The position numbers and the translations under genes are program-made. Below, in pieces: positions 26,608-48,913 of a stretch of DNA of 64,000 nt. The notes beneath the pieces are model-generated. The model was given only the letters and a program-made list of their open reading frames with translations. It was not told the origin of the DNA and ran no database searches. Origin of the DNA: a virus (lineage: Duplodnaviria > Heunggongvirae > Uroviricota > Caudoviricetes); the IMG/VR virus record IMGVR_UViG_3300042901_002340; one strand, written 5' to 3'. Within the stretch, counting starts at the first letter, position 1; each line of letters opens with the position of its first letter.

Positions 26608-27192
26608 ATGAAAATAAATATGAAGGAAGAAACAAAATCAAAGGCCATAACTTTCTGCGGTGCTCCGAGTTCGGGAAAAAGTACATTAGCAACTTCAATA
26701 CATCATGGACTTAAGGTTAGAAAGAAAAATTCCATATTTGTTGGTGAAGCTGCAACCGATTACATAGCTGAATGGGGAATACCGGACACACCAACGGATC
26801 AATTAGTCATATTCTATAAGCAGCTCGGAAGGGAAAGAATGTATGTTGGTTCTAAGGATTGGATAATATGTGATTCGAGTACAATCTTAAATTACTTTTA
26901 TTTCAGATCTCTCTTTGGAAACCAGTTATCTCTTAAAGATATTGCAACTATTAACCACGTACAAAAGGAGATACTTAAATCTTTGAGCCAGTGGCATAAG
27001 ATCTACTATGTTCCTCCATTCTTGGAGGACGATGAGAACGATGGAATAAGGTTCCACAATAAGGAGGAAATAATTAGATTGGATTCCATAATTAAAAACT
27101 ATTTGGAACTTGAAAGAATACCATATGTTGATCTTTCAGTTATTCCAATAGAAAATAGAACGGAGTGGGTTCTTAAGGATCTGTTGTCCTAG
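26608..27192 (+). CDS. P-loop NTPase, NadR-type (AAA_28) kinase; possible nicotinamide riboside kinase
   Basis: Walker A ITFCGAPSSGKSTLA. Block order resembles the NadR ribosylnicotinamide-kinase domain: ..DTDF/ICDSS.., DG.R.., then the tail ..VPYIEI/IPYVDL... Confidence 0.4.
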   Translation: MKINMKEETKSKAITFCGAPSSGKSTLATSIHHGLKVRKKNSIFVGEAATDYIAEWGIPDTPTDQLVIFYKQLGRERMYVGSKDWIICDSSTILNYFYFRSLFGNQLSLKDIATINHVQKEILKSLSQWHKIYYVPPFLEDDENDGIRFHNKEEIIRLDSIIKNYLELERIPYVDLSVIPIENRTEWVLKDLLS

Positions 27193-28437: not shown

Positions 28438-29007
28438 TTATTCTTCAGCTTTTTTTACCCCGAAGGTTTTATTATAAACATCCTCGATGGCCTTTATTCC
28501 TGATTCGTCTATCTCCCTTGTACCTACGCCTGCAAAATTTTCGGTCAATTTGGGTGTTTCAATAATTGTCCAAGATCCTGAAGAATATGTGTGCCATTCT
28601 TTAACTAATTGACAGAAAACAAAAACTGGCATTTCTTTATCAATTGCCATCTGAACTGCCCAGCCTGTTCCTCCACTTACTAGATTGTTTTCTATTCTTG
28701 ATATTGCAAAAACAGAATCAGATTTATTAACCTGAAACCAATTTCTTCTCAGAAGATTATTAACATAAGCATTTCTGGTTGGGTATTTCCTTTTCAGAGT
28801 TTTATTTGCTTTAATAAGATCCGAATCAATTATCTTTTCTAGTTTATCTGACATCTTTATTGATGCATTACCCTTCGTTGTTTTATATCCATCTATAAAA
28901 TAATGATTGAATTCTCTTAGACCAAAACGACGTCCGATGATTTCCCATGTGATATCCGCTCCTATTGCTCCACCAGAATGTAAAACATAAGTTTTATTAT
29001 TCATCAT
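28438..29007 (-). CDS. SLOG / DprA-like Rossmann-fold nucleotide-binding protein
   Basis: N-terminal VLHSGGAIGADITWE is a GGAxGAD glycine-rich loop like SLOG, LOG and DprA families. Central ...SGGTGWAVQMAI. Confidence 0.4.
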   Translation of the reverse strand: MMNNKTYVLHSGGAIGADITWEIIGRRFGLREFNHYFIDGYKTTKGNASIKMSDKLEKIIDSDLIKANKTLKRKYPTRNAYVNNLLRRNWFQVNKSDSVFAISRIENNLVSGGTGWAVQMAIDKEMPVFVFCQLVKEWHTYSSGSWTIIETPKLTENFAGVGTREIDESGIKAIEDVYNKTFGVKKAEE

Positions 29008-29461
29008 TGGGTTTCAATTGGCAATCCTCAACAGCTACAGCTTTCTTGTTTTTATAGTAAACTCTATGAACATCTGCAAGAAAAGAAACCTCATCCGGAC
29101 CTAGAAATTCCATCATGAGTCTTAGAACTGATGGGAGAACTTCCGATTCATGGAAGATCATTCGGATCTCCTTATAACCATTTCTCTTTCCCTCCTCCCA
29201 ATCCTCCGGATCCTTGATGTTGCTTTCATTGGTGTGTGTCTTGTGTTCATAGATCTGTCCATCGTAGTAACTGAACTCGCTAGTTTCCCCAACTATGCCG
29301 TCCAATTCCTTGACGTCATTAAAGAATTGATCGGTTCCCTTTTCCTCTATATACTTTTTGAATTCTGCAAATATCTCCGGAAATTCTTTCTCGTGTATTT
29401 TGAATTCTTTGTGATCGTGACCCATCTTATCCCAAAGGATCGAAGAATATAAACTCACCAT
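28997..29461 (-). CDS. Hypothetical protein
   Basis: 154-aa ORF. Confidence 0.45.
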   Translation of the reverse strand: MVSLYSSILWDKMGHDHKEFKIHEKEFPEIFAEFKKYIEEKGTDQFFNDVKELDGIVGETSEFSYYDGQIYEHKTHTNESNIKDPEDWEEGKRNGYKEIRMIFHESEVLPSVLRLMMEFLGPDEVSFLADVHRVYYKNKKAVAVEDCQLKPNDE

Positions 29462-30366
29462 TATTTTTTCTTTTTAAAGTACTTATCCATAATATGTGTG
29501 ATGATATTATGTTTTTTATCGGTACAAGTTATTGTTATATAATTTTTTGATGCGTTTTGTGTGTGAACTAGACCATATCTTTTCATCAATGTAATATCAA
29601 CCTCAGGTGTAAGAGAAGCTGAGTTTACTCTCTCACTTTTATTGAAAACCTCACCCTCTGAATGCTCAACCAGAAATATTCCTTCGTTCATCGGTCCGTT
29701 ATTTCTGCCTATAACCACTCTTTTATCCTTCCAGCTAAGATTTGGATTTACTAGGATTTCAATTTTTCCCCTGTATACCCCACATTTATAGATTAATCCT
29801 GATAGTCCTCTCTGTCCCATTGATGAATCATGTTCAATTGGACTGAATCCTTCGCTGTCGGAAAAATGTGGTAATAATCCGGGCCCTATTATAACAAAGT
29901 TTGCTGGTCCGATTCTTGAAGCAGCCGCTATTCGGTTGGATAAAAGTAGTACCTTTCTTGGCAATTCCCCATCCTTTGATAGGTCAAGCATTGGAATATA
30001 TCCCGTCCATTTATTGGCAAGGTTCTGGATTTTTGTCCATAGCTTTCTGTTTGATTCGTAACCAAGCAATTTCATTTTTTTATAAATCTGCTTTTCCTGA
30101 CCTGTACTGGATTCTCCTATAAGAGTGGATTCAATCATTGTCATAGCATCAATACCATAAGCATCAAGATCTTTTATCTGTTCGCCGTTGATTGTCGATT
30201 TAACCCGGTATGTCTCTAGTTCAACAAGTTTTGTTTTTGTTGTTACCCCGATTTCTGGAAATCCGTCTTCGCTAGGTGTATCTTTTAATTCTGTGGTCAG
30301 GTAAGTTAATATCCCATGTCCACTGTCTACCTGTGATACAGATATATGTTTTTTAATCTCACTCAT
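29461..30366 (-). CDS. Hypothetical protein
   Basis: 301-aa ORF with no recognised motif. Confidence 0.5.
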   Translation of the reverse strand: MSEIKKHISVSQVDSGHGILTYLTTELKDTPSEDGFPEIGVTTKTKLVELETYRVKSTINGEQIKDLDAYGIDAMTMIESTLIGESSTGQEKQIYKKMKLLGYESNRKLWTKIQNLANKWTGYIPMLDLSKDGELPRKVLLLSNRIAAASRIGPANFVIIGPGLLPHFSDSEGFSPIEHDSSMGQRGLSGLIYKCGVYRGKIEILVNPNLSWKDKRVVIGRNNGPMNEGIFLVEHSEGEVFNKSERVNSASLTPEVDITLMKRYGLVHTQNASKNYITITCTDKKHNIITHIMDKYFKKKK

Positions 30367-30429
30367 TTACATAAGTTATTTTTAAATCGCTTCTTAGAAG
30401 CTCGCAGGATTTTGTGGATTCCCAACCAT

Positions 30430-30942
30430 TTAATATTTTCTTCTGGCTTCTCTCCCTATTGTTGTAAGTAAAGCACCAAAAGCAGAATCGAAGTCCGGAT
30501 ATTGTGGCATTTCGTATCTTGTACATAGGATATCAACGTTGCCCTTTCTGTAGAATCCATCAGGACAGCAAACTATAACTTTAGCGTTACTACCTGCACA
30601 TAGGCCTAATTCTAATAGAGTTATTGGACTTTTGGATTCTGGTAGGATGTTAAAGAATATCACATCCGAATCCTCGATGTTGTCAAGTTCCCAGTTTACT
30701 TGGTAGTTGAATACTGAGTTGGATTCTTCCTGTTCCCATGTGTTGTCCCATGAATCCCTTCTTGGGTTGTAAACATCTACGTGATGTGTGAAACCAATCT
30801 CATTATCGAAGGATGATAATCTTCTGTAAGTTTCCTCTTGCCAATCCTCAGAATTTCCCATCTCAATGGTTCCAGCTAGGAACACCGATATTGGGTCTGG
30901 TTGCTGTGTGAAATCGTTGTCAGGTTTTATTAAAGTTACCAT
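30430..30942 (-). CDS. Nucleoside 2-deoxyribosyltransferase-like (NDT/Rcl superfamily) protein
   Basis: VFLAGTIEMG...W near the N-terminus and ...DSDVIFFNILPESKSPITLLELGLCAGSNAKVIV resemble the NDT-like fold. Confidence 0.45.
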   Translation of the reverse strand: MVTLIKPDNDFTQQPDPISVFLAGTIEMGNSEDWQEETYRRLSSFDNEIGFTHHVDVYNPRRDSWDNTWEQEESNSVFNYQVNWELDNIEDSDVIFFNILPESKSPITLLELGLCAGSNAKVIVCCPDGFYRKGNVDILCTRYEMPQYPDFDSAFGALLTTIGREARRKY

Positions 30943-31033
30943 GTTAATTATTTAGAATTTATACAAATTTAAGTGATTTTGTTTCATAAAAAAACCCGTG
31001 ATTACTCACGGGTTTTGCATATATGTTCAGGTA

Positions 31034-32947
31034 TTATTTGTTACCTCTTTTAGGTCCTTCCTGACTAATTGGACTTGATGGAGTTACCTCTGGAGTTTCC
31101 TTAACCTCAGCAGCAGCTTTTCTAGCGTTAACCTGGTTTAGTAATTCCATCCCAAGCAATCCTGAGATTGGTCCATTAGAACCATCTCCTCCGCTGATAA
31201 GGATTTCAGGAATGATCTTGATGTTATTAACCCCGATTGACTCTACAACTTTTAATTGTCCGAAGTTATCAGCACCCATCGCTTGAACTTGTTTCTCGTA
31301 AGCTTCTGCTGTCGCTCTACCGATAGCTTCAATCTTAGAAGCCTCAGCCTTACCTGTTACTTCGATTTGAGTAGCATCTGCTTTTGCCATCAGTTCTTTT
31401 GCTTTTGCCTCCGCTCCAGCTTTGATTTCAATAGCTTTTGCTTCCCCTTCAGATCTCTTAACTTCAGCTTCAGCTTTTCTTTGCGAGATCTCAACTGATT
31501 GCTGTGCACTTACCATTTCTCCTTGCATGTTAGCCAAGGCTTTTGCTGATTCAAGGGTTTTACGTTGATCTTGTGCTTTTTTCTGAGTCTCGAATGTTAC
31601 CTCCTCTTCCTGTGCGATCTTACGATCTGTTAATGTTTTCATTAACGATTCAGGTGGGACGATGTCTCCGATTAATGTATCTACTGCATGTACATTGTAC
31701 TCATCCAGAACTTTTGATATATTCGCCTTTGCAGCATCTTGTCTTTGCTGACGTGTTGATAGGAACGCAATAACATCTGAATCCTGTGCAGAGTTACGGA
31801 AGTAGTTACCAATTGTTGGCTCTAGTACTTGTGATACAAGATTTGACATAGAACCGAATCTAGCAATAACCTTTGGTGCCTCTGTGGAGGGAATGTGAAT
31901 AATTTGAGATACGTCCAGATTGAATGGGAATCCATCCTTAGATCTAACCGTGATGGTGCTTAGATTTTTATCCAAATTGTGGGATTCTGATCTGGCATTT
32001 GCCCAGTTGAGTACCAGATTTGTTGTTGGAACAACTTCAATTTTCTGTGTGTATGGATTGATTGCATATTTACCTGGATCCAATGGCGTAATGCAAACAC
32101 CTTTTTGTCCCTTCTGAACAATATTTCCATGTTTGAATGTATCCCCTGTGGTATCAACACCCTCGTCACCAACATAAGATATAACAACACCAACGTGACC
32201 AATTGGTATCTGTGTCATCTCCTTCTTCTCTATTTCTATTGCCCAAGGATTAATCGAATATGAACCTGCTTGAATAACCTGAACTTGAAGTCCTCTTTGG
32301 CCTCCATTTTCTAAGAATTTATCAAAATCCTGGAAGTTATTATGCCCATCCACCGTTGATCCTGCGATCGATCCGGTTTTAAGAGGTATACCATCCAATG
32401 CAGTTATTACCCCAACCATTCCGTCTTCAATGTAAGTGATATCTGCTTCGTATATCTCGAATATATGTTTGTTGATACGATATACCCCGTTATTAAGATA
32501 TCCGACCTGCTTACCACGTTGACCTCCATTAGTTAAGAATTCTCTAGCTGACTGGTAGTTATCGCAATCAACGTGTCTGGCTAAAATGGACCCTGTTGGG
32601 AGTTGGGCACCGTCCTTAGATGTAATTATTCCAATTTTTCCTTTCTGGATAACCGTTAATGGTGATTGGTCAATTGTGAATTGCCAAGGCCAATAGAACC
32701 AATATAATCCTGGTGCTAATGTATCAGCCTGAAATCCAGGTTCTCCATTAAGAGCAATAATCTTACCATCAGGTAATGTTTTGTTTGCTCCGAAAAGTAC
32801 GAATTTTTTGGTAACTAGACCAATTTTATCCTCTGGGATAATTACCATACCGAAGAATACTCGGAGCGTGAATTTGTAAAATAGTACAGCTAGAATTGGA
32901 ATAATCCACCAAGCATACCCTAATAAATTTGAAATTTGTTCGTGCAT
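31034..32947 (-). CDS. SPFH / band-7 / flotillin-like protein
   Basis: 637 aa. N-terminal TM segment, SPFH-like beta-rich region, and a C-terminal flotillin-like EA-repeat coiled coil (QRKAEAEVKRSEGEAKAIEIKAGAEAKAKELMAKADATQIEVTGKAEASKIEAIGRATAEAYEKQ). Confidence 0.65.
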   Translation of the reverse strand: MHEQISNLLGYAWWIIPILAVLFYKFTLRVFFGMVIIPEDKIGLVTKKFVLFGANKTLPDGKIIALNGEPGFQADTLAPGLYWFYWPWQFTIDQSPLTVIQKGKIGIITSKDGAQLPTGSILARHVDCDNYQSAREFLTNGGQRGKQVGYLNNGVYRINKHIFEIYEADITYIEDGMVGVITALDGIPLKTGSIAGSTVDGHNNFQDFDKFLENGGQRGLQVQVIQAGSYSINPWAIEIEKKEMTQIPIGHVGVVISYVGDEGVDTTGDTFKHGNIVQKGQKGVCITPLDPGKYAINPYTQKIEVVPTTNLVLNWANARSESHNLDKNLSTITVRSKDGFPFNLDVSQIIHIPSTEAPKVIARFGSMSNLVSQVLEPTIGNYFRNSAQDSDVIAFLSTRQQRQDAAKANISKVLDEYNVHAVDTLIGDIVPPESLMKTLTDRKIAQEEEVTFETQKKAQDQRKTLESAKALANMQGEMVSAQQSVEISQRKAEAEVKRSEGEAKAIEIKAGAEAKAKELMAKADATQIEVTGKAEASKIEAIGRATAEAYEKQVQAMGADNFGQLKVVESIGVNNIKIIPEILISGGDGSNGPISGLLGMELLNQVNARKAAAEVKETPEVTPSSPISQEGPKRGNK

Positions 32948-32980
32948 TTTTTTAATTATTAATTGTTAATATTATTGAAT

Positions 32981-33014
32981 GCAAATATATGACAAAATTT
33001 CGAATTAAAAAAAT
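32981..33014 (-). promoter_or_regulatory. Conserved promoter element (gcaaatatatg ... ttcgaattaaaaaaat)
   Basis: Lies upstream of 31034..32947. The terminator hairpin aaaaaatccgaaatttatttcggatttttt follows it. Confidence 0.5.
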
Positions 33015-33196
33015 AAATCACAAAAAAAATCCGAAATTTATTTCGGATTTTTTGTTAGTATATTCCCCAATCTGGAATGGTTATTATCTTTTCCTTCCTT
33101 GGCCTTTTAACCTTTGATTTTTTAGGAAATTCCATGTCTTCATCAATCTTTTGTATGAAGGTTTTAAATGTTTTTATATTCTCAAAAGTTTTCATT

Positions 33197-33943
33197 TTAA
33201 GTGATTATTTTTGCGGCTATATTCTCAACGAATGCCTTCATATCTGCAGGTGATATCTTATCTACAGAGTCTTCCATGCTATGACATAGAAATAGAACTT
33301 CAAAATCTAAGCATCTCCCATCGGAACAAACAACTGGTGTTTTCTTATCTGTTGGAGGCAATGGATTGATAACAACAGAATCTATACCATTCCTTCTGAA
33401 AATAACAGAATCGTTGAAAGGTGTTCTAACTATTGGACAATCAAAGATGGATTGGATGTGATCTGTTAGTGGCCCTGGGTAGTCTCCAATAAAGAAATCT
33501 TCACCCCCTCTGCCGGTTAACTCGAAATTAAGTACCCATTTGATATCACCAAAATCTCCAGCATTAATTCTTTCGCTCAGATGTTTGGATCCAAATCCTC
33601 CATACTCTTCACCGTCCAATATCGATACGTTTATTGAAGGTACCAATTTCTTAAGTGCAATCGCATTAATAACTGAACAGCTATTATCATTTGCATTGTC
33701 TGATTTTGGATTAACTATATCGTGATGAGCAACAACAAACTGGTTTGAATTACCTAACAGATTGATATTGAACCCGTCAGTTTTCTCATCGACAGGGAAA
33801 CGATCAATCTCGTATTCTATCCCCTCTTTTTTAAGAAGAGACACTATAAACTCCAGCCTGGGGGTAAGTTCCTTCCCATTGGTGAAGATAGGACCTACAT
33901 TTTTTGCGGCACAGAGCCCATAAATTTCATTGTATATACTCAT
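33197..33943 (-). CDS. Zn-dependent peptidase-like protein (M28/M20-like motifs)
   Basis: VVAHHDIV (H.D), ANDNSCSV (GA.DD.SG-like) and ...NDSVIFRRNGIDSV (SDH..F...GIP-like). Confidence 0.4.
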   Translation of the reverse strand: MSIYNEIYGLCAAKNVGPIFTNGKELTPRLEFIVSLLKKEGIEYEIDRFPVDEKTDGFNINLLGNSNQFVVAHHDIVNPKSDNANDNSCSVINAIALKKLVPSINVSILDGEEYGGFGSKHLSERINAGDFGDIKWVLNFELTGRGGEDFFIGDYPGPLTDHIQSIFDCPIVRTPFNDSVIFRRNGIDSVVINPLPPTDKKTPVVCSDGRCLDFEVLFLCHSMEDSVDKISPADMKAFVENIAAKIIT

Positions 33944-33961
33944 CAGATTATTTTAATTTAT

Positions 33962-34972
33962 CTATATATCATCCTCGTCCCCATCCTCATCGTAGCCATA
34001 GTACTCTTTCATTTTGGCGACTGATGGTTCTAAGGATGTTATGATTCTTTTCCAACCTTCCCAGTTGAAGTGTTGTGACCCGTACTGAGATCTTTGGAGT
34101 TTGAAACACATCCCTCCCATTGCTGAAGTTAATCTCGCAGTTTCAATTAGCCACTCAAAATCAGTTCCTTCTCTTAGACAAGATGTAACTAAAACTACTG
34201 CATGCTCACGCTTCATGCTTTCTAATAAATGTATTCTTGAGGAGTACATAGCTTCCCTTAGTTTCTCGGGAAATGTTTTACTTTTTCTGTTACCTTCACC
34301 AATCTTGATGAACTTGGCTATACCTTTTCTCATGCCATCGGTATATTCTTTTTGCCATTTTGCTTCGTAGCTGTCTTTCCTACCTTCTGCTGAGAAGTCC
34401 GGATCGGTTAACGTGTCATAAACAGGAGCATGGATATAAGTAACCGTTAGTGCCTTGCAGATATCAAGTATAAACTCGGGTAAATTATTATCCACTCCTT
34501 TAAGTTTCCACCTGTTATCGGATTCCCCATCAGTTCCTTTCATACCATACGTGAACCATCTGTCATCAGTTGCTACATCCATCAAGCTGGCAAAGGGAAT
34601 TCCACATAGGATCCCCTCCATTAACTTTACTCTTTTTTGGGTCTCCTCGTCATCCATAGGAACGACATCACCGCAATCGTTATACTTACCTCTAATAGCA
34701 GGTCCAAATGGAACATAGTCAGACATAGCACCTTCGTTAGAAACCTCCATGCCTTTGTGGTCCATGTTGTTACCCCAATTTTCGGTTGTTCGTTCCCATG
34801 TTTGCAAAGCTTTTTCCAGACCTTCCTTCTTTGCTTGTTTAATAAAAGATGAAACCATGTAACCGCTACCTTCTTGTGCGGTTCTCCTTGGTAACATGAA
34901 TTGGACTACTAATTCTTGTCTATCTACGATTGTTTGATTTGTGATTGAACACAATGTGTAAAAACTTCCCAT
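33962..34972 (-). CDS. Hypothetical protein
   Basis: 336-aa ORF with an acidic C-terminal tail. Confidence 0.5.
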   Translation of the reverse strand: MGSFYTLCSITNQTIVDRQELVVQFMLPRRTAQEGSGYMVSSFIKQAKKEGLEKALQTWERTTENWGNNMDHKGMEVSNEGAMSDYVPFGPAIRGKYNDCGDVVPMDDEETQKRVKLMEGILCGIPFASLMDVATDDRWFTYGMKGTDGESDNRWKLKGVDNNLPEFILDICKALTVTYIHAPVYDTLTDPDFSAEGRKDSYEAKWQKEYTDGMRKGIAKFIKIGEGNRKSKTFPEKLREAMYSSRIHLLESMKREHAVVLVTSCLREGTDFEWLIETARLTSAMGGMCFKLQRSQYGSQHFNWEGWKRIITSLEPSVAKMKEYYGYDEDGDEDDI

Positions 34973-35355
34973 TATTTTTTTAGATTAATTGCTTTTTTTA
35001 GACCCTCCTCCAGGGCATCTTCATAGATAGTGAATGCTTCGTCACATTCAAAAGTTGTTTCATTATCGTCCATTATTAGCCATTCGTAATGACCTTCTTT
35101 TAGTGCGGGAACAATGAAAACATTTATTCCTAATTCTTCCCTCAGCCATTTCTGAAGAAGTGATTGTGTTGGCGCCGATATTGATTCTTCAGTATTATTA
35201 CATTTTCCAATACCTTGTTTTGAGAGTAGTACCTTCAAATACTCAGGATCCCAATAGTATCTTCCATCAACTGGAATATTGAATCCCTTTGACTTAGCTA
35301 ATTCTGCGGTCTCTATGGTTATTAATTTTTCTTCCATTCCTTTATTATTCCTCAA
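34972..35355 (-). CDS. Hypothetical protein, family B paralog (see 54794..55939)
   Basis: Shares LAKSKGFNIP...YYWDP and PTQSLLQKWLREELGINVFI with three tandem ORFs at 54.8-55.9 kb. Confidence 0.5.
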   Translation of the reverse strand: MRNNKGMEEKLITIETAELAKSKGFNIPVDGRYYWDPEYLKVLLSKQGIGKCNNTEESISAPTQSLLQKWLREELGINVFIVPALKEGHYEWLIMDDNETTFECDEAFTIYEDALEEGLKKAINLKK

Positions 35356-35385
35356 ATATATGAAATCCTTTCGAATAAAAAAAAT
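35351..35385 (-). promoter_or_regulatory. Conserved promoter element (ctcaaatatatg ... ttcgaataaaaaaaat)
   Basis: Lies upstream of 34972..35355. Confidence 0.45.
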
Positions 35386-35421
35386 CCCGAATGATATATT
35401 CGGGATTTTTTATTTTGGTGA

Positions 35422-37083
35422 TTATTTTAATCTCTCTCTAATTTCTGTTAGCGTGACCTGATTGTGGAATTTACCATCCTCATAGATGGTAAATAATAAA
35501 CCACTGTCTTCCTGCTCCTTAGTGCATTCGGTATTTACCTCCAACTGATCCTTACCATCGTACTTGATCTCGTAAGGTAAGGCATCTGGCCTGTTATTGA
35601 ATACCTGACAGAAACCCTTTAATGATTTTTTAGTACCATTATCTGTTATTGGGTCTTTGTAGATATTATATTCGGTCGTGATGTAATCAGTTTGACCGTC
35701 AGGATCAACACCATTAAATTCCTTAGTAGAGAACCAAGCTCCTTTAGCTGCATATCCAGCAGAGTCTCTTGTTAGCATGACATATGTGTAAGAACCAACC
35801 CCTACAACGACGTTAGTAGATGCAAATCCTTTGGCTTCTGACCTTGTGTAGATAGCAATTTGTCTTTCCAAGTTGATTGAATCACCGTAGATGGCTCCAA
35901 TGTGTGGGTCCAATCTTTTATATCCTTGTTCATTGATAGTTCCACCAAAGATATCCCAAAGTAATTCAATAACACCTTTACCTTCTGGAGTTCCAGTGTG
36001 TAATGTTGATTCGCTACCGCAAATAATATCGACTGGGTCTCCAGAATCAGGACGAATTACAAGTTTACCATCTCTTGCAAGGATTTCCTTTTTAAGTCTT
36101 GGTAGAATGTGCGTAATAACTTTCCATAAATCCATTGTATCAGAAACTGCAGAAAGAATGCCTTTAGGGAATTTTTTCAACCAATCTCGAAGATTAAGGT
36201 ATTCTGCAATTGCTAGGTAGTCCGGAGCATCAACCGATCCCTCGCAAGGGGAATCGAAAGAATAGTAGTTTAGAATCTCATGGTTTAATTTTCCAGATTT
36301 TAATTTTTTCTCGTAGAAGAAAATACCTGTACAAGTCACGCTGTGCTCTGAAGCATTAACGCTATAAACAGGAACCTCATTCTCATCAAAATCGTAGTAG
36401 TATCTTGATGCCGGGATAACATTTAATGTGTCGCTACCAGAATTACTCATGGCGTGTCCTAAACCGATTGCGATTGAGGTGAAAGGATTACCACCTCTAC
36501 TATGAAAATCGTGACACATGAAATCAGCTAACCAAAGATTCTCCGGATCTGTTTTGGTAACCCATTCCACAGCATTCTTTTTGAATCTGTGTGCAATGGT
36601 AGCAGCAGTAGGTAATTGCCAAGCCAATTTAGAAACCAATGTCTCTAAGTAAAGTCCAAGCCATGCATAACCATCAACAGTATTAATACCCGTCATGTGA
36701 GGGATATTTGGTTTGGTGAAGGTTCCTTCTGGGATAGCTTTGATTTTAACTGGAAGGTATCCAAGTTTATGAAGCTCTGTGAAATGCCCAGCATCATAGT
36801 CCATCATAAGATACTTAGCCATATCTCTTCCAAATTTCTCTGCCACCTCCACATGTTTATTGAAGAAAAGCTCCTGAAAGTTACTATGAATGTATCTCCA
36901 AACTAATTGTTGACCTGCTGACATGATGCCGTCTATCGATGGATGCATGTACTTGATGCTTCTTGGAATCCATGTCCAATATTCGGTTGCTGTGTTTTCA
37001 GCTAACATTGCCTTGTGCCCAACTTTATACCCGTCGGATTCGTAAAGGGGGTTGATTTTAAACGTTTCGTTTAGTTTTTCCAT
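35422..37083 (-). CDS. nadV: Nicotinamide phosphoribosyltransferase (NAMPT / NadV-like; could be a Namat-type enzyme)
   Basis: Recalled NAMPT blocks aligned by eye: DGYKVGHKAM (cf. DSYKVTHYKQ), KIKAIPEGT, CHDFHSRGG (cf. LHDFGYRG), LVIRPDSGDPVDII (cf. LIIRPDSGNPLDTV), GAIYGDSIN. Confidence 0.8.
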   Translation of the reverse strand: MEKLNETFKINPLYESDGYKVGHKAMLAENTATEYWTWIPRSIKYMHPSIDGIMSAGQQLVWRYIHSNFQELFFNKHVEVAEKFGRDMAKYLMMDYDAGHFTELHKLGYLPVKIKAIPEGTFTKPNIPHMTGINTVDGYAWLGLYLETLVSKLAWQLPTAATIAHRFKKNAVEWVTKTDPENLWLADFMCHDFHSRGGNPFTSIAIGLGHAMSNSGSDTLNVIPASRYYYDFDENEVPVYSVNASEHSVTCTGIFFYEKKLKSGKLNHEILNYYSFDSPCEGSVDAPDYLAIAEYLNLRDWLKKFPKGILSAVSDTMDLWKVITHILPRLKKEILARDGKLVIRPDSGDPVDIICGSESTLHTGTPEGKGVIELLWDIFGGTINEQGYKRLDPHIGAIYGDSINLERQIAIYTRSEAKGFASTNVVVGVGSYTYVMLTRDSAGYAAKGAWFSTKEFNGVDPDGQTDYITTEYNIYKDPITDNGTKKSLKGFCQVFNNRPDALPYEIKYDGKDQLEVNTECTKEQEDSGLLFTIYEDGKFHNQVTLTEIRERLK

Positions 37084-37088
37084 TTTTA

Positions 37089-37574
37089 TTAATTGTTTTC
37101 GTTTCCTATTATTTTTCTAATTTCCTCGTCAGTAAGAATAAATTTTGGATCTTCTCTATCTACGAATGTTGATTTATTTGTTTCAAACCACTTTGAGAAT
37201 TTTTTAGCATATATCTTAGTGTATGGATCTATAGAAAAAAGAAGTTCCGTGTGTATGAATGCGAAATTTCCATCCGTCGCGGGTAATCGGATTGCGCTAA
37301 CTTTCCCGTTTTTATTCAGTGAAAAAACTAGGGACAAATCTGAATTTGTATCTATTGAAGAGTACTTCCCAACCAGATCTTTATGTGCAAAGAAGTACAT
37401 GGAGCTATCGCCTCTCCAATTAAATTGGTACTCTCCGCTGGTAAGAAGTTCATAACTATACTTATATTTATGGAAATTCCTAAAATTAACCAATGTCGAC
37501 ATTAGCATCATAAGTAGAATGGTGATGCACACTGATAATATAACCGATGTGATTATTGTAATTGCTGTTGTCAT
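37089..37574 (-). CDS. Hypothetical membrane protein
   Basis: 161 aa with an N-terminal TM helix. Confidence 0.45.
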   Translation of the reverse strand: MTTAITIITSVILSVCITILLMMLMSTLVNFRNFHKYKYSYELLTSGEYQFNWRGDSSMYFFAHKDLVGKYSSIDTNSDLSLVFSLNKNGKVSAIRLPATDGNFAFIHTELLFSIDPYTKIYAKKFSKWFETNKSTFVDREDPKFILTDEEIRKIIGNENN

Positions 37575-37957
37575 TATAAAGTATTTAAAGATTTTTGTTT
37601 GGACTCTTCGAATGCGATTATAATTTTTTTTCTCCAGTATAGTGTATATGGGTCAAAGAAAGTAAAACTTGCCTCATGTATATAAGCGCTGATATTTCTT
37701 TTTCCAGTTAACAATTTTATTGATCCCTTTCCATCCCCAAAAAATATAATTTCGTTATCAGTAAAAGGATCTGTATTATCAGGTCTTCTGAAGTAGATGG
37801 TACTATCTGAGCTAAGATTTCTATCGCGAACATAGCTGCCATTCACTATAGCATCATATGTTGGTTTGTAGAATTGATAGTATTCTCTTAGTGTTAAGAA
37901 TGAGGATAACCATAGGATACCTATGATTATTACTAAAAGTAATATAATTGCTGTCAT
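37574..37957 (-). CDS. Hypothetical membrane protein
   Basis: 127 aa with an N-terminal TM helix. It shares the motif F..P.T..W.KK with 37089..37574. Confidence 0.45.
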   Translation of the reverse strand: MTAIILLLVIIIGILWLSSFLTLREYYQFYKPTYDAIVNGSYVRDRNLSSDSTIYFRRPDNTDPFTDNEIIFFGDGKGSIKLLTGKRNISAYIHEASFTFFDPYTLYWRKKIIIAFEESKQKSLNTL

Positions 37958-37959
37958 TA

Positions 37960-38451
37960 TTATTGGGTTTTATAGATTAATTCGTCTTTTTTGATGTATG
38001 GAATATGTATGTACTCATCCACTAAAGCTTTCTGTTTTTCTAAACATGATTCTAACATTTTAGATTTCTCTATTATAGCGGATTCTGGAACTTTTCTTTC
38101 TCTATTTTTATTTCTTTCCAAGCAAACTTTTAAAGGTGCTTCAACATAAACTAGTGTTATGTGATAACCTTTGTCCTTAAGCATTCCAATAATTCTCAAA
38201 GAGTAAGAGTTATTAACTCCACCAGAGTCCATGCACATAGAAATTCCTTTATCCGATAGTTCACACATTTGTCTTTCCGCTTCTTTAACACTCCATTGGT
38301 GAAGGGGTTCTGGATCCTTTGGGTCATAATCCTTATGTGATTGTTTGATAAGGTCAGCAGAAACTATAGAATAGTCTCCGGCATAGTCTCTATTGACTAT
38401 GGATGTTTTTCCTGATCCAGGTAAGCCGATAAAAAGTATTGCTTTTTTCAT
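37960..38451 (-). CDS. P-loop kinase (AAA_33 / polynucleotide-kinase or zeta-toxin-like fold)
   Basis: Walker A LFIGLPGSGKTSIV at the N-terminus. Size fits a small nucleotide or nucleoside kinase. Confidence 0.5.
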   Translation of the reverse strand: MKKAILFIGLPGSGKTSIVNRDYAGDYSIVSADLIKQSHKDYDPKDPEPLHQWSVKEAERQMCELSDKGISMCMDSGGVNNSYSLRIIGMLKDKGYHITLVYVEAPLKVCLERNKNRERKVPESAIIEKSKMLESCLEKQKALVDEYIHIPYIKKDELIYKTQ

Positions 38452-38466
38452 TCCCTTTAATTGTTA

Positions 38467-38500
38467 GGCAAATATAAAAAAAAATTCCGGATAAAAAAAT
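38467..38500 (-). promoter_or_regulatory. Conserved promoter element plus hairpin terminator
   Basis: ggcaaatataaa ... aattccggataaaaaaattttattcggaattttttt. The hairpin ends gene 38520..38852 and the promoter serves 37960..38451. Confidence 0.5.
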
Positions 38501-38519
38501 TTTATTCGGAATTTTTTAA

Positions 38520-38852
38520 CTAACAATCAATATATTTTATTTCGATGCCTTTCTTGACAGCAAATTCTATTTCCTCTGCGACACCTCTTGAATGATTCCA
38601 GCCTTCCATTTTGTAGACATGTAGCTCATCACTAACTTGAAGAAAGCTTAGACAGAAATTCTGCCAGAATGGCCAGTCTGTTGGCATTTCTTTAAATTGA
38701 GTAAGAGTGTGTCCGTATGTTATGGGTGAAAATGCTACGTTCCCTTTAGCACAAAGATCCGCTGCTATTTTTGATATTTTCTCGAAATTCTCCTCCCTTT
38801 TTTTGTCATCTGGATTGCTGTATGGCGATGCTAGGTAGATTATTTTTCCCAT
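38520..38852 (-). CDS. DUF1937-like protein (NDT-like clan)
   Basis: IYLASPYSNPD...FSPI...EGWNHSRGVAEEIEFAVKKGIEI matches the YLAsPYS / GW..S.GV..EI..A...G DUF1937 pattern as I recall it. Confidence 0.5.
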   Translation of the reverse strand: MGKIIYLASPYSNPDDKKREENFEKISKIAADLCAKGNVAFSPITYGHTLTQFKEMPTDWPFWQNFCLSFLQVSDELHVYKMEGWNHSRGVAEEIEFAVKKGIEIKYIDC

Positions 38853-42141: not shown

Positions 42142-42471
42142 CTATTCTTTATCTATGTTATTAATTATATCACTAATTCCGTCACTCTCTGACATGCCTT
42201 CTAATTTCTTGGCTAATTCTACGAATGCTGTATATCCAATATCCTGCATCTCCATGATGAGATCAACAACTCTAACGTCGACGTTTAATTCCTCTGCACA
42301 TTTTATTGCAGTTTTCTCCTCGAGTTTAACCCCAGATTCAACAAGATCCATTGCCATGTCGAATCCCTTTTCTGTTATGAGTGTTCCTCCTTCCAGAAAA
42401 CCACCCTCTCTTAGTTTGTTACACCAGTAAACAAACAGGAGTGCCTGTTCTTTAAGCTCCTCGAAGTTCAT
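42142..42471 (-). CDS. Hypothetical small acidic protein
   Basis: 109-aa ORF. Confidence 0.45.
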   Translation of the reverse strand: MNFEELKEQALLFVYWCNKLREGGFLEGGTLITEKGFDMAMDLVESGVKLEEKTAIKCAEELNVDVRVVDLIMEMQDIGYTAFVELAKKLEGMSESDGISDIINNIDKE

Positions 42472-42931
42472 TTTTCACAAGTGTTAATGCTTGACCTAAT
42501 AAATTAAGACCTAACCAATATGACGGATCCTCAACTCCTTGTGCATCCTCGTCCATACCAATTCCCCACACATTATCAAGAGGTGAAGCTTCAACAAAAA
42601 ATGCATTCCCTGTTGATAGCATTTCTTCCTTTAAGCCTGGATTCTGTGAAAATTTGGCTAGATTTCCTTCATATACAATAGCTAAGCAATTCCTTTCCCA
42701 AATTGATTTGTCAAAGTTCTTAACCATCCTTCCGAATTTCTTTTGTTCCCTTGGATTTTTTTCCTGCATGATTAATTCTGCAGTTTCTTCATCGCCAAAT
42801 AACAATGCCTTCTGGTGCATCATGTATTGCTCGCATGAATTATATTCTATTTTACCAATGGTCATATTTGCTTTATGCCATTGCGAGTAAATTCCATTCC
42901 AGAAAAACACGTATTTATTTGTTGTTTTCAT
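42452..42931 (-). CDS. NADAR domain protein (YbiA-like, DUF1768; ADP-ribose / NAD-associated N-glycosidase family)
   Basis: FFW....S.W, EQ.MM..KA, KFSQNP.L...LL.TG...VEAS..D..WGIG and LG..L..VR match the NADAR family pattern as I recall it. Confidence 0.65.
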   Translation of the reverse strand: MKTTNKYVFFWNGIYSQWHKANMTIGKIEYNSCEQYMMHQKALLFGDEETAELIMQEKNPREQKKFGRMVKNFDKSIWERNCLAIVYEGNLAKFSQNPGLKEEMLSTGNAFFVEASPLDNVWGIGMDEDAQGVEDPSYWLGLNLLGQALTLVKNELRGA

Positions 42932-45212: not shown

Positions 45213-45362
45213 ATGAAAAAATTAATAACTGTAAGGATAGACGCAGCGACATATGATCAATACAGAAAGGTGTTGGAAGAAAATGGAATGGATATGAGCA
45301 AAAGAATACGTAATTTTATAGATTCAGAAATAAAAGATCTTGGTGATGGAAAAAATTGTTAA
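45213..45362 (+). CDS. Ribbon-helix-helix (CopG/Arc-like) small DNA-binding protein
   Basis: MKKLITVRIDAATYDQYRKVLEENGMDMSKRIRNFI has the beta-strand then two helices pattern. The ORF-track N-terminal extension is rejected. Confidence 0.45.
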   Translation: MKKLITVRIDAATYDQYRKVLEENGMDMSKRIRNFIDSEIKDLGDGKNC

Positions 45363-46122
45363 ATCATACATATACTCACTCATAGATCCGGTTACTGAGG
45401 AAATAAGATACATAGGAAAAACAGTAAATCCATCACAAAGATTATCTGCTCATATAAAAAGCGGATATAAAAAAGGTAGTCATAAGGAATGCTGGATATA
45501 TGGACTATTAGAGAAAAATCTAAAACCAAAAATGAACATAATTGAGGAATGTTTGGATGATAGCTGGATAGAAAGGGAAAAATATTATATAAGAACGTTA
45601 CCAAATCTAACTAACCATACGGAAGGCGGTGATTCACCTTCCGGTCATAAGATGTCGGAAGAGACTAGAAAAAAAATGTCGGAGAGCAGAAGAGGAGAAC
45701 AAAACTCATTCTTTGGTAAATCACATTCCAATGAATCCAGAAAATTGATCTCGAAATCTATCAAGGAAATTCCAAAGAATGAGGGCTACGGATTTACTGG
45801 TAAAAATCACAAGGAATCATCCAGAGAGATAATATCTAAAAGAGCAAAGGAAAGAGCAAATAGAGGTGAATTACCTAAGCTGCCAATTATGTCAGGTAAG
45901 GATAATCCTGCATCGAAGGAGAGAATTTTCATATCCCCGTCAGGTGAAATATTCATTGTTTATAATTTAAGAAAATTTTGTAAAGAAAACAGCTTATCTC
46001 ACAATATAATATTTAGAAATATAAACAATGGACCTATAGAAAAACCAACGGATAAAAAAACTCTCGATAGACAAAGAACCAAGAGTCTAAATACCATAGG
46101 ATGGGAAGTGATACAGAAATAG
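45346..46122 (+). CDS. GIY-YIG homing endonuclease with NUMOD3-like repeats
   Basis: KSYIYSLIDPVTEEIRYIGKT is the GIY-YIG motif. Repeated H.EETRKKMSESRRG / HSNESRKLISKS / HKESSREIISKRAKE are NUMOD3-like DNA-binding motifs. The track start is TTG at 45340, so I use the ATG at 45346. Confidence 0.75.
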   Translation: MEKIVKSYIYSLIDPVTEEIRYIGKTVNPSQRLSAHIKSGYKKGSHKECWIYGLLEKNLKPKMNIIEECLDDSWIEREKYYIRTLPNLTNHTEGGDSPSGHKMSEETRKKMSESRRGEQNSFFGKSHSNESRKLISKSIKEIPKNEGYGFTGKNHKESSREIISKRAKERANRGELPKLPIMSGKDNPASKERIFISPSGEIFIVYNLRKFCKENSLSHNIIFRNINNGPIEKPTDKKTLDRQRTKSLNTIGWEVIQK

Positions 46123-46704
46123 TTATTTTTTTAGATGTACTATTGTTACCTTACAATCTTTTAGCTCCTCCTTTATTAGGGATTTAACCGTTTTCTCATC
46201 ACCTCCGGCCAATCCACACCCGATAAGGGGGAGTCCGACGTGTCTACCTTTGAATTGGTGGTTTATTTTTCTCATACAGAGTCTAAGTGCATCATAATCA
46301 AGGGGCCTAGCAGTTCCGCCCTCATGATTTAATCCAAACCCATATTGGGTGTAGCTATTAACAACTGCAAGATCAAATTTGCCATTTTCTCCGGTGTATG
46401 TATTAACCTTCCAATCTATCTGACCAAGCTTGTTATAGTCACCCCTATGCTGTTGACCTTCCATTGGAAATTTGTCACACCCAAATGCCCCAGCCATTTG
46501 TGGTGCTATTCCAGCTCCCATGGTACAGAAACAGTTACATCCATGGGTGATCACTTGGAATTTTCCCTGTTGTGCCATGGTTATTAGATTGCCAACTACC
46601 TCCCGATATGCTGGGTGGATTGGCTGACTAATAAGGGATTCTGGCAAACATGACCTGTCACACTCGCCGTTGCAATACATACAACCTCCTATTAGTGTTC
46701 TCAT
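46123..46704 (-). CDS. Macro domain protein (ADP-ribose binding or hydrolysing) with an N-terminal Cys cluster
   Basis: QVITHGCNCFCTMGAGIAPQ matches the macro VNaaN..l.gGgGva / Macro_2 pattern. LPLIGCGLAGGD is the distal macro motif. N-terminus has CMYCNGECDRSC. Confidence 0.55.
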   Translation of the reverse strand: MRTLIGGCMYCNGECDRSCLPESLISQPIHPAYREVVGNLITMAQQGKFQVITHGCNCFCTMGAGIAPQMAGAFGCDKFPMEGQQHRGDYNKLGQIDWKVNTYTGENGKFDLAVVNSYTQYGFGLNHEGGTARPLDYDALRLCMRKINHQFKGRHVGLPLIGCGLAGGDEKTVKSLIKEELKDCKVTIVHLKK

Positions 46705-47009
46705 TATTTAAGGTCTTCCGATTTAGTTGTTCCATCTCTATTGATGTGAACCACAATGTTATCCATGGTTTCTCTTACCCCTTCCTCGTGTCCTTTTTTT
46801 CTAGAATTCGCACTTATTAATGCAACCCCAATTGACAATAGAACCCAACCCACTGCGTTTAGTGGAGCATTCATTTTGAACGAGAAGGGAGAGAATGTGA
46901 TTTCAGTATCGCCAATAAACAGGAATCCTGCTATTACAAAAAGACCCAATAGTATAATTTCTAACATACTTTTCATTTTATTTGATTTTATAAACGTATA
47001 ACGTGTCAA
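46704..47009 (-). CDS. Small membrane protein
   Basis: 101 aa with two TM helices. Confidence 0.4.
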   Translation of the reverse strand: MTRYTFIKSNKMKSMLEIILLGLFVIAGFLFIGDTEITFSPFSFKMNAPLNAVGWVLLSIGVALISANSRKKGHEEGVRETMDNIVVHINRDGTTKSEDLK

Positions 47010-47196
47010 TTTTTTTACCGTCCGTTGTTAATTTGATAGCTGGTTCAATTTTTGTTTTAGATTCTATAAATTCAGAATTACCCCAAATTGTATTACCTAA
47101 AAAAACACCTAAAGCCCCTGCGACAAAAAATACAAAGATGATTATGGTTACGACAAATTTAAAAATTTCGCCGAAAACTTCTTCAGAATTAAACAT
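46978..47196 (-). CDS. Small membrane protein
   Basis: 72 aa with one TM helix. Confidence 0.4.
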   Translation of the reverse strand: MFNSEEVFGEIFKFVVTIIIFVFFVAGALGVFLGNTIWGNSEFIESKTKIEPAIKLTTDGKKIDTLYVYKIK

Positions 47197-47197
47197 A

Positions 47198-48103
47198 TTA
47201 GATAACTTTTAATTGTTTAAGTTTGTGCATCTCATTATCGTTTCTTAATGAGAATTCAGGATCGGACATATCAACATAACTGTTGGTTGTGTAGATACCA
47301 TCGAAGTGTTCATTTAGTGGCTTTAAACCAGCTGAAAAGATTCCATGGGTTACAACAAGGAAAATCTTACCTGTTGCATTTTTTTCTCTGAGTGCTTTAG
47401 CAATCTCGATAAATGTGCGTCCTCCGTCGCAAATATCATCTAAGATAAAGAAGTCTTTATCTAGATCCTCAGGTTTTAAAGGAACATCAGTGTGTGTAAT
47501 CTTGCCAGTCCCAATGTCTCTGTGTTTTGAAGCTATAACTATGTCCTGCTTATATCCAATGGACTCGGCAACATCGTAAACTTTCTTAAGAGCTCCAGCA
47601 TCCGGAGATATTAATCTCATTTTGGAATAATCAGTGCTTCCAGAATTGAAATAGTCACGCAATACAAATGTTAGTAAACCCTGACCATATTGAGTTACCT
47701 TTTTGAATTTTTTGATACATGCCTCAGTCACATCCGAATGCGGGTCAAGTATTGTTACTCTTTTGAATTTCTGTGCATTGATAATAGGAGCAAGAACCTC
47801 TTTGATGTAATTAACACTTCCTTCCTCGAATTTTCTGTCCGATCTCGCACCTAATAGGTATGATATCTCAAGTGAAGTTGCTTTAACTCCAAGCTCTTTA
47901 AGAGCTTTATTTGCACAAATAACCAATTCAAGATCCAAGAATGAAGTTATTCTGGATTTTATTAAAACTGGTTCCATTTTCTCAAACATATCATGTTTGA
48001 GAACTTCACCCTCCAATATGGTGATGGCTTGCTGGCCATCCGGAAATTTGGAGACCTTGAATTTGATACCGTAGCTTAACGGTTCGGAAAGATTTATTAC
48101 CAT
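47198..48103 (-). CDS. Ribose-phosphate pyrophosphokinase (PRPP synthetase)-like protein; could be an ADPR-pyrophosphate synthetase (Adps) type
   Basis: RVTILDPHSDVTEAC matches the PRPP-synthetase DLHA..IQGFF region. FFILDDICDGGRTF matches the PRPP-binding loop VDDMIDTGGT. 301 aa. Confidence 0.65.
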   Translation of the reverse strand: MVINLSEPLSYGIKFKVSKFPDGQQAITILEGEVLKHDMFEKMEPVLIKSRITSFLDLELVICANKALKELGVKATSLEISYLLGARSDRKFEEGSVNYIKEVLAPIINAQKFKRVTILDPHSDVTEACIKKFKKVTQYGQGLLTFVLRDYFNSGSTDYSKMRLISPDAGALKKVYDVAESIGYKQDIVIASKHRDIGTGKITHTDVPLKPEDLDKDFFILDDICDGGRTFIEIAKALREKNATGKIFLVVTHGIFSAGLKPLNEHFDGIYTTNSYVDMSDPEFSLRNDNEMHKLKQLKVI

Positions 48104-48115
48104 TATTTTTATTTT

Positions 48116-48862: not shown

Positions 48863-48878
48863 ATCATTAAATTATATG

Positions 48879-48913
48879 CAAATATAAAAAAAAGATTCGA
48901 AATAAAAAAATTA
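48879..48913 (-). promoter_or_regulatory. Conserved promoter element plus a perfect hairpin terminator (gattcgaaataa-aaaaa-ttatttcgaatc, T6)
   Basis: Lies upstream of 48116..48862 and downstream of 48911..49267. Confidence 0.55.

Follow-up and report, generated by a model that had tools for sequence, protein, structure and literature searches.

The 64,000-nucleotide stretch of DNA that we analysed (hereafter the window, at its full length), from the IMG/VR virus record IMGVR_UViG_3300042901_002340 of the Caudoviricetes, encodes four proteins with nucleotide-processing folds in the vicinity of a NAMPT-family enzyme: a SLOG-like protein, a nucleoside 2-deoxyribosyltransferase-like (NDT-like) protein, a DUF1937-like protein and a small P-loop kinase. 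The question raised by this locus is which of these proteins act together, and on what molecules. A first-pass annotation had treated the four as one module, directed either against the nucleotide signals of host immunity or at the modification of DNA precursors. The open reading frames (ORFs) that it named near NAMPT were all present at their coordinates on the minus strand, and its fold assignments were right (Table 1). Our analysis indicates that the region is probably part of a dispersed and extended island of the NARP1/NARP1-AP type, devoted to the reconstitution of nicotinamide adenine dinucleotide (NAD+), in a novel giant phage. The NDT-like and DUF1937-like proteins are conserved accessory enzymes without a description in the literature that we searched.

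NARP1 is made up of Adps, a Prs-like pyrophosphokinase of ADP-ribose (ADPR), and Namat, a NAMPT-like enzyme, and the pair converts ADPR and nicotinamide into NAD+; NARP2 is made up of Nampt and Nmnat (Osterman et al. 2024, bioRxiv 10.1101/2024.02.11.579819). The NARP1 of Bacillus phage FADO was verified by deletion. In NARP1-AP of Vibrio phage Gary (Adps-Adpp-Namat) the Macro protein Adpp converts ADPR-1''-phosphate into ADPR (bioRxiv 10.64898/2026.01.28.702374). RyDEP, encoded in the NARP1 operon of mycobacteriophage DyoEdafos, is a glycosidase that converts 2'/3'cADPR into ADPR (bioRxiv 10.64898/2026.05.28.727677).

Viral loci were fetched around each family with 10 kb on either side, and their six-frame ORFs were searched with the window proteins, a match being a phmmer hit at E < 1e-5. 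The NDT-centred set held the best 80 of 542 matches and the NAMPT-centred set the best 80 of at least 593; the DUF1937 set held 65 loci and the SLOG-like set 80. Around the NDT-like gene we detected NAMPT in 70 loci, a Prs-like gene in 54, a Macro-domain gene in 38, SPFH in 21, NADAR in 19, DUF1937 in 11, SLOG in 4 and the kinase in none. The NAMPT-centred loci contained Prs-like genes (71), NDT-like (40), Macro (23), SPFH (13), NADAR (10), DUF1937 (8) and SLOG (4), and neither the kinase nor NadR in any locus. The NDT-like gene was commoner in this sample than the Macro phosphatase, and across our samples no other accessory gene accompanied the Prs-like/NAMPT operon as often. The DUF1937 loci carried NAMPT and NDT-like genes in 22 cases each, Prs-like in 21, NADAR in 15, Macro in 14, SPFH in 13, SLOG in 5 and the kinase in 2, whereas the SLOG-like loci showed NADAR, SPFH and DUF1937 in 3 each, NAMPT and NDT-like in 2 each, the kinase in 1 and Prs-like or Macro in none. 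The difference in proximity to NAMPT between the NDT and SLOG sets gave a Fisher p of 2.5e-31, uncorrected for phylogeny. Co-location beyond chance was observed for the NDT-like gene, the DUF1937 clade of the window and NAMPT, and not for SLOG or the kinase.

The association of NDT-like and NAMPT genes was close. The distance between them was at most 300 bp in 34 loci and at most 2.5 kb in 30 more, and 5 of the 10 NDT loci that had no NAMPT were contig ends. Four same-strand orders were found (PRS-NAMPT-NDT, PRS-NDT-NAMPT, NDT-NAMPT-PRS and NAMPT-NDT-PRS). The flanks of the NDT loci had a median pairwise ORF share of 0, with 77% of the pairs sharing less than 10%, and they formed 20 clusters, 17 of which had NAMPT within 3 kb. 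Because the orders are permuted and the flanks unrelated, the link between the two genes is not the property of one lineage. Compact operons were also found, with the orders PRS-Macro-NADAR-x-x-DUF1937-NDT-NAMPT (locus L032) and PRS-x-DUF1937-x-NAMPT-NDT (locus L018). The window reads Prs-like, Macro, NADAR, DUF1937, NAMPT, SPFH and NDT-like on the minus strand over 18 kb, which is the gene order of the compact operons, stretched out. The first-pass annotation had missed the true partners, Prs-like, Macro and NADAR, because they lie outside the positions 28,438 to 38,852 that it covered.

The linkage of DUF1937 was a matter of clade. Among loci whose DUF1937 protein was at least 44% identical to that of the window, NAMPT or Prs-like genes lay within 10 kb in 23 of 37, and among the distant DUF1937 loci in 0 of 28. 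In Caulobacter phage CcrBL9 (L011 4332-6393) a DUF1937 homologue stands directly behind the two genes published as NARP3, those of PnuC and of a NadR-like NMNAT/kinase, and this PnuC-NadR-DUF1937 arrangement of the Bertelyvirus phages is a second, independent link of DUF1937 to NAD+ rebuilding. We rejected the idea that DUF1937 is generally tied to NARP3 (PnuC-NadR); the tie holds in the Caulobacter Bertelyvirus phages and fails in phiCbK and in a small Vibrio phage.

Both proteins of the NDT clan carry conserved residues at the site expected of an N-glycosidase nucleophile. In the NDT-like protein, which matched its Pfam profile above the gathering score and has the NDT fold, E111 and S105 were invariant in 25 sequences, within the motif S105-P-I-T-L-L-E111. 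Judged by this motif, E111 is the putative equivalent of E98 in NDT and E93 in Rcl. In DNPH1/Rcl the arrangement is Ser-x5-Glu, where the serine binds the 5'-phosphate and the glutamate is the nucleophile, and nucleoside-specific NDTs have an aspartate at the position of this serine. The other invariant residues of the NDT-like protein were R61, R62, R132, R142 and K104, and such arginines and lysines suit an anionic substrate. In the DUF1937-like protein (55.1 bits to its Pfam profile, for which the cut-off is 23) S88, G90 and E94 were invariant in 29 homologues, so that here, too, a serine stands six residues ahead of a glutamate. A profile-profile comparison of the NDT-like and DUF1937 families found no similarity (probability 0.15%), and the idea that they are paralogues was rejected on that value. 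An NDT-like PF15891 domain makes up the N-terminal part of a 1262-aa protein in Tunturiibacter phage Tunturi_5 (L012 5962-9750); this protein, which bears a MutT/NUDIX hydrolase annotation, adjoins the portal gene and may be a virion-associated polyvalent protein. Literature searches on PF15891/Nuc_deoxyri_tr2, and for work joining DUF1937 with phage, NrtR with a deoxyribosyltransferase or NARP1 with NADAR, found nothing relevant.

The proposed core of the island is the Prs-like pyrophosphokinase and the NAMPT-family enzyme. The Prs-like protein gave weak Pfam matches to Pribosyltran (7e-7) and Pribosyl_synth and matched the phage-specific family phrog_619 at 6e-63. Its score of 84.6 bits compares with a cut-off of 113 bits for TIGR01251, and it lay under all cellular Prs equivalog cut-offs. 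Its identity to the Adps of phage FADO was 28% (60 bits). The NAMPT-family enzyme was 40% identical to FADO Namat (315 bits) and 26% identical to the Nmnat-associated Nampt of CcrColossus (114 bits), which places it with the Adps-associated (Namat) clade. In phrog_12872 (547 positions) the Prs-like protein matched positions 13-223 and NAMPT matched positions 374-535, suggesting that some phages encode a fusion of the two. NMNAT, NadR and PnuC were not detected in the window scans or near any viral locus, and none of the 80 NAMPT-centred, 80 NDT-centred and 65 DUF1937-centred viral loci had NMNAT or NadR within 10 kb. We infer Adps and Namat chemistry for the window phage from this homology and from the conserved pairing of the two genes.

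Downstream of the Prs-like gene lies a protein whose sequence points to a Macro-domain phosphatase of the ADPR-1''-phosphate type, as NARP1-AP has near its Adps. It matched phrog_335 'phosphatase' at 4e-41 and Pfam Macro at 0.007, which is under the cut-off; in the PDB it matched 2fg1/2afc (2e-9) and macrodomain 5e3b (0.0045). The family has 2720 phage records, many of them annotated as macro or phosphatase. In a 386 kb relative a SIR2-domain gene (L001 1-371) precedes the M42 peptidase gene by a few genes, at the place taken in the window by the homing endonuclease, Macro and Prs-like genes.

The window is AT-rich phage DNA (~36% GC) with nearly all genes on the minus strand. Its near relatives are metagenomic contigs of 386-434 kb, collinear in gene order, and the window phage is therefore a giant phage. 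No close cultured relative was found, since megablast with 28-40 kb of the window against 50,697 phage records gave no match. The relatives differ in what they keep. Relative L001 has NAMPT and SLOG without NDT-like, SPFH, DUF1937 and the kinase; relative L004 is without the kinase, and relative L006 has all of them. A natural deletion variant, IMGVR_UViG_3300006056_000031 (L013/L158), is ~92% identical to the window at the nucleotide level and carries three separate indels. About 370 bp stand in place of the Prs-like region (window 46522-49248); a deletion has taken out the NAMPT block (window 34247-38187) and fused the 5' portion of the kinase gene with the 3' portion of a 336-aa gene; and the NDT-like region (window 30369-30943) is swapped for a 364-aa ORF that is homing-endonuclease-like by eye. 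The Macro, NADAR, DUF1937, SPFH, gp23-like and SLOG genes are all kept. The joint loss of the Prs-like, NAMPT and NDT-like genes is what is expected if the three work together.

The arrangement was not restricted to phages. Among the best 80 of 268 bacterial NDT-like loci, mostly from Bacteroidota, Prs-like genes were found in 34 (some of these matches may be housekeeping Prs) and NAMPT and NADAR in 27 each. The metagenome-assembled Bacteroidia genome JAEUTO010000005.1 (L341 4640-14040) contains an uninterrupted same-strand run of eleven genes: NrtR, Prs-like, NADAR, KptA/Tpt1, metallophosphoesterase, NDT-like, NAMPT, Macro, TonB receptor, PnuC and NadR. To judge from its gene content, this run looks like a complete operon for the recycling of ADPR derivatives to NAD+ in a bacterial chromosome, and each of its accessory genes of known chemistry makes or processes an ADPR derivative. 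Its Prs-like protein was 35% identical (115 bits) to that of the window. ADPR releases NrtR from DNA, and NrtR controls prs-nadV operons; what the second prs paralogue does in them was still an open matter in 2008 (Rodionov et al., PMC2330246).

On these grounds we propose the following scheme. The Prs-like protein would convert ADPR to ADPR-pyrophosphate, and the NAMPT-family enzyme would join this to nicotinamide, giving NAD+ in place of that cut by host defences. The Macro protein would be the counterpart of Adpp of phage Gary. By analogy with RyDEP and Adpp, the NDT-like and DUF1937-like proteins would be 'feeder' or 'editing' N-glycosidases or base-exchange transferases that use the conserved glutamate as nucleophile. 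Their substrates would be NAD+-derived N-glycosides of 5'-phosphorylated ribose, for example conjugates of ADPR with a base or an amino acid, N-linked cyclic ADPR or nicotinamide mononucleotide (NMN), and the ADPR or nicotinamide set free would enter the core pathway. Tentatively, and below an even chance, the PF15891 NDT-like proteins and the DUF1937 clade of the window may be new families of enzymes in the NAD+ arms race, which would open N-linked ADPR conjugates that defences produce (histidine-ADPR, N1-/N7-cyclic ADPR and other base-ADPR adducts, for example) or release nicotinamide from NMN-type products. They might then let NARP1 use products that otherwise escape it, and might also serve the ADPR-induced recycling operon of Bacteroidota.

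The SLOG-like protein and the kinase are probably neighbours of these genes by genome collinearity and act elsewhere. The SLOG-like protein has the SLOG fold, Rossmannoid with a Gly-rich loop behind strand 1 and a second loop of GGxG type, and in fold comparison it scored 13.0 with 3imk, 7.6 with ShosA/DprA, 6.9 with the LOG protein TM1055, 6.6 with DprA, 6.6 with the Moco carrier protein and 6.3 with YpsA. It did not fall into a described sequence family (LOG, DprA, YpsA, DUF2493 and others); no Pfam or NCBIfam profile matched it at E <= 0.1, and 0 of the 120 listed homologues carried a Pfam domain. The family is large and widespread, and in 14 of the 80 loci it occurred in ORFs of at least 1000 aa. 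The domain lies inside the virion RNA polymerase of the N4-like Klebsiella phage Pylas (L008) and, in crAss-like phages (L009, crAss cr113_1), within a protein longer than 4300 aa, and its presence in giant virion proteins suggests early, injected action. Genome records of corals (Dendronephthya, Montipora) and of horseshoe crab also include annotated free-standing homologues, at 42-45% identity. Iyer et al. (2022, PMC9503650) predicted a role for viral SLOG domains in the processing of ADPr derivatives, a prediction that the window data neither support nor exclude. The kinase matched phrog_505 polynucleotide kinase at 2e-10, with weak matches to PSTK and Pnkp, and consists of the kinase domain alone. 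In the cyanophage Lbo-JY46 of Leptolyngbya its homologue carries a fused C-terminus of weak NT5C/HAD similarity, and the gene stands 1.4 kb upstream of NAMPT and also near a Prs-like gene, the sole other such kinase neighbourhood that we saw. A role as nicotinamide riboside kinase or as NAD 3'-kinase of the zeta/AvrRxo1 type was set aside, as the kinase is rarely with the module and its best matches are polynucleotide and tRNA kinases.

Several points weigh against a NARP1-type island. The Prs-like and NAMPT genes of the window are separated by 9.1 kb and 24 ORFs, beyond the 'within 10 genes' of the NARP1 definition, within which most related loci fall. Scans for promoters and terminators over 28.4-48.4 kb found terminator-like sites no more frequent than in shuffles, with two strong hairpins standing out, and because these lie behind the NAMPT and M28 peptidase genes the island is probably transcribed in separate units. 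Adps and true Prs are not told apart by pairwise scores or library cut-offs, and the verified Adps shares just 28% identity with the window protein. The solved homologues of the NDT-like protein (4mcj) and of DUF1937 (1t1j) are uncharacterised, and no PF15891 or DUF1937 protein has a known substrate. The NDT-like genes of the cultured phages CcrColossus, Kabachok, Slickus01, EliS-L02 and DLP_6 have no NAMPT or Prs-like gene adjacent, and distant DUF1937 genes sit in other contexts. The viral and bacterial locus sets, being the best 80 matches per query, are non-random, and the counts are uncorrected for phylogeny. Some of these points bear on ordinary nicotinamide salvage of the NARP2 kind, which we consider unlikely: the Prs-like protein would make phosphoribosyl pyrophosphate (PRPP), NAMPT would make NMN, and an NMNAT would be encoded elsewhere in the ~400 kb genome, while the AAA_28 protein would phosphorylate nicotinamide riboside and the NDT-like and DUF1937-like proteins would be nucleotide nucleosidases supplying nicotinamide or ribose-5-phosphate or clearing off-pathway products. 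The window covers 64 kb, a quarter or less of the genome, so that an NMNAT may indeed sit outside it. The AAA_28 gene is syntenic in the phage family (downstream and on the opposite strand in relatives), Namat is published to make NMN from PRPP in vitro as well, and in the Bacteroidia operon NadR and PnuC stand beside the Prs-like, NDT-like and NAMPT genes; the Prs-like protein there keeps Pribosyltran_N, so that PRPP-based salvage is possible in that bacterium. Against salvage in the phage stand the viral loci, which had no NMNAT or NadR within 10 kb, the much closer relation of the NAMPT to the Adps-associated clade, the position of the Prs-like protein under the cellular Prs thresholds, and the Macro gene beside it as in NARP1-AP.

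It appears very improbable that all four proteins form one module for the binding or destruction of the nucleotide signals of immunity (gcADPR or cyclic oligonucleotides, for instance). The SLOG fold is confirmed, SLOG domains of the ThsA type bind gcADPR, the published prediction on viral SLOG domains points the same way, and in two other contigs (L038/L109 and L047/L119) SLOG lies directly beside a Prs-like gene. However, the NAMPT, NDT-like or DUF1937 genes found near SLOG in 2-3 of 80 loci all belong to close relatives of the window phage (both loci with NAMPT among them), the kinase was found in 0-2 loci per set, the composition of relatives L001 and L004 separates the members, and unrelated genes and the terminator-like hairpins lie between them. 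Of the proposed counter-defence link, the part on the NDT-like and DUF1937-like proteins is supported, as these recur in Prs-like/NAMPT operons with Macro and NADAR; for the SLOG-like protein and the kinase the link found no support. The absence of any functional coupling, with auxiliary genes piled up in a giant-phage early region and inherited by collinearity, has a very small probability in our estimate. The collinear order across the 386-434 kb relatives, the unrelated genes interleaved with the named ones (gp23-like paralogue, SPFH protein, M28 peptidase and others without assignment) and the position of NDT-like genes away from NAMPT in cultured Caulobacter, Brevundimonas and other phages would fit it, but the adjacency survives permuted orders and unrelated flanks, recurs in bacterial chromosomes under an ADPR-sensing regulator, and three independent indels took exactly the Prs-like, NAMPT and NDT-like genes in a near-identical phage. 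We give the least credence, an extremely slim chance, to the other route first suggested, DNA-precursor or base modification, by which NDT-like enzymes would hydrolyse or exchange the bases of deoxynucleoside monophosphates (dNMPs), as DNPH1 and MilB do, and so remove canonical nucleotides or make a modified base. DNPH1/Rcl, MilB and the NDTs have a related fold, and the neighbours of the NDT-like gene in Stenotrophomonas phage DLP_6 are PhoH, exonuclease and dCMP deaminase genes. Yet the Pfam scans of the window, which took in most ORFs of about 100 aa or more, revealed no hydroxymethylase, dNMP kinase or base-modifying transferase, and in phages and bacteria alike the genes conserved beside NDT-like are those of NAD and ADPR.

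Table 1. Features of the window discussed in the text
Feature	Coordinates	Strand	Evidence and remarks
AAA_28 P-loop protein, NadR ribosylnicotinamide-kinase domain family	26608..27192	+	PF13521 1.2e-13; phrog_3462 NMNAT model, kinase part, 4e-4
SLOG-fold protein, unannotated family	28438..29007	-	phrog_768 'DprA-like' is the sole profile match
gp23-like (T4 major capsid protein fold) short paralogue, 301 aa	29461..30366	-	PF07068 Gp23 1.3e-11
NDT-like protein	30430..30942	-	PF15891 8e-34; NDT fold
SPFH/Band-7 (flotillin-like) protein, 637 aa	31034..32947	-	PF01145 6e-27; N-terminal membrane segment
Second hairpin	33053-33024		Terminator-like; behind M28 peptidase gene
Hairpin, perfect, 15 bp	35379..35411		Terminator-like on both strands; A and T runs on flanks; just 3' of NAMPT stop
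NAMPT-family enzyme, 553 aa, Adps-associated (Namat-like) clade	35422..37083	-	PF04095 9e-24 (NAPRTase family); phrog_448 NAMPT 3e-136
Small P-loop kinase, 163 aa, Pnk/PSTK-like	37960..38451	-	AAA_33 6e-14; Zeta_toxin 1e-8; GLPGSGKT motif
DUF1937-like protein, 110 aa, NDT/DrHyd clan	38520..38852	-	PF09152 1.4e-14; also DUF7768, DUF4406; PDB 1t1j 1e-8
NADAR-domain N-glycosidase-family protein	42452..42931	-	Pfam NADAR 1.7e-47; TIGR02464 2e-41
Macro-domain protein, T4 Tk.4 / Appr-1''-p phosphatase type, candidate Adpp	46123..46704	-	Two small ORFs downstream of Prs-like
Prs-like pyrophosphokinase, candidate Adps (ADPR pyrophosphokinase of NARP1)	47198..48103	-	Outside the coordinates of the first-pass annotation

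Other genes accompany the island. NADAR was found in 15 of the 65 DUF1937 loci and in about a third of the bacterial NDT loci, as counted above, and the SPFH gene lies between NAMPT and the NDT-like gene in the window, as it does in 21 of the 80 NDT loci. The gp23-like paralogue stands directly downstream of the NDT-like gene in a non-structural region, an adjacency repeated in 14 of the 80 NDT and 10 of the 80 NAMPT loci; one idea is that it serves as a decoy for a capsid sensor. Genes for a homing endonuclease and for two peptidases, together with many small ORFs, are interspersed among those of the island. Two GIY-YIG homing-endonuclease genes were detected (1350-2126 and 45346-46122, one with NUMOD3), and the latter is inserted on the plus strand between the M42 peptidase and Macro genes. 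A DUF3307 membrane protein (49137-49511) is encoded ~1 kb upstream of the Prs-like gene, and in locus L018 (9592-10008) such a gene lies between the Prs-like and DUF1937 genes. A gene for a Thg1-like tRNA-His guanylyltransferase (50428-51282) is followed by that of a second AAA_33 kinase-domain protein (51285-52163). The Thg1-like gene recurs a few kb from NAD modules, namely NARP1 in FADO (L238) and PnuC-NadR in CcrBL9 (L011), and was present in 18 of the 80 NDT and 12 of the 80 NAMPT loci. At 63602-63961, 60812-61384, 2133-2837 and 6299-9058 the window also encodes an SmpB homologue (3.8e-38), a ferritin-like protein, a non-specific DNA/RNA endonuclease (Endonuclease_NS) whose N-terminus is signal-peptide-like by eye, and a large protein in whose translation many collagen-like Gly-X-Y repeats were seen, again by eye.

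Set beside the known systems, the island resembles NARP1 in its divergent phage-type Prs-like protein and Adps-associated NAMPT, whose genes are adjacent or within ~3 kb of each other in close relatives; it differs in the spacing of the window pair and the low identity to the verified Adps. With NARP1-AP it shares the Macro-type gene near the Prs-like gene (Macro being found in 38 of 80 NDT and 23 of 80 NAMPT loci), whereas NADAR, DUF1937-like, NDT-like and SPFH are further conserved genes of the window island, absent from the NARP1-AP paper, and its Macro protein lies under the Pfam cut-off. RyDEP offers a precedent, being a glycosidase that lies in a NARP1 operon and supplies the core enzymes with ADPR made from an NAD+-derived molecule. 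It has the RyR Repeat12 fold rather than the NDT/DrHyd fold and cuts an O-glycosidic ribose-ribose bond, while NDT-fold enzymes are known for N-glycosidic ones. The prs-nadV operons under NrtR likewise combine a Prs paralogue with NadV, and the Bacteroidia version adds NADAR, NDT-like and Macro genes in the same relative order as in the phage; the window is without NrtR, KptA and metallophosphoesterase, and the bacterial operon has PnuC and NadR in addition. The NDT/DNPH1/MilB superfamily (the Pfam clan of PF05014, PF15891 and PF09152) has the same fold and a glutamate at the nucleophile position, but the genomic partners here are NAD and ADPR genes and not those of deoxynucleotides. The co-occurrence of SLOG, Macro, NADAR and NadV in large phages was described in the survey of Iyer, Burroughs, Anantharaman and Aravind (2022, PMC9503650). 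That survey has the viral ARC-type DrHyd alone, without a link of PF15891 or DUF1937 to NAD salvage, and in our data SLOG has no conserved link to salvage.

NAD+ depletion is among the commonest anti-phage strategies of bacteria, and the rebuilding of NAD+ by phages, with feeders such as Adpp and RyDEP, is an active field. The window adds two further candidate accessory families to it, the PF15891 NDT-like proteins and one clade of DUF1937, for which structures have been solved (4mcj and 1t1j) and which now have a concrete, testable range of candidate substrates. Definitions of NARP1 by gene distance miss dispersed versions in giant phages. The presence of such enzymes suggests that some defences make NAD+-derived products not yet described.

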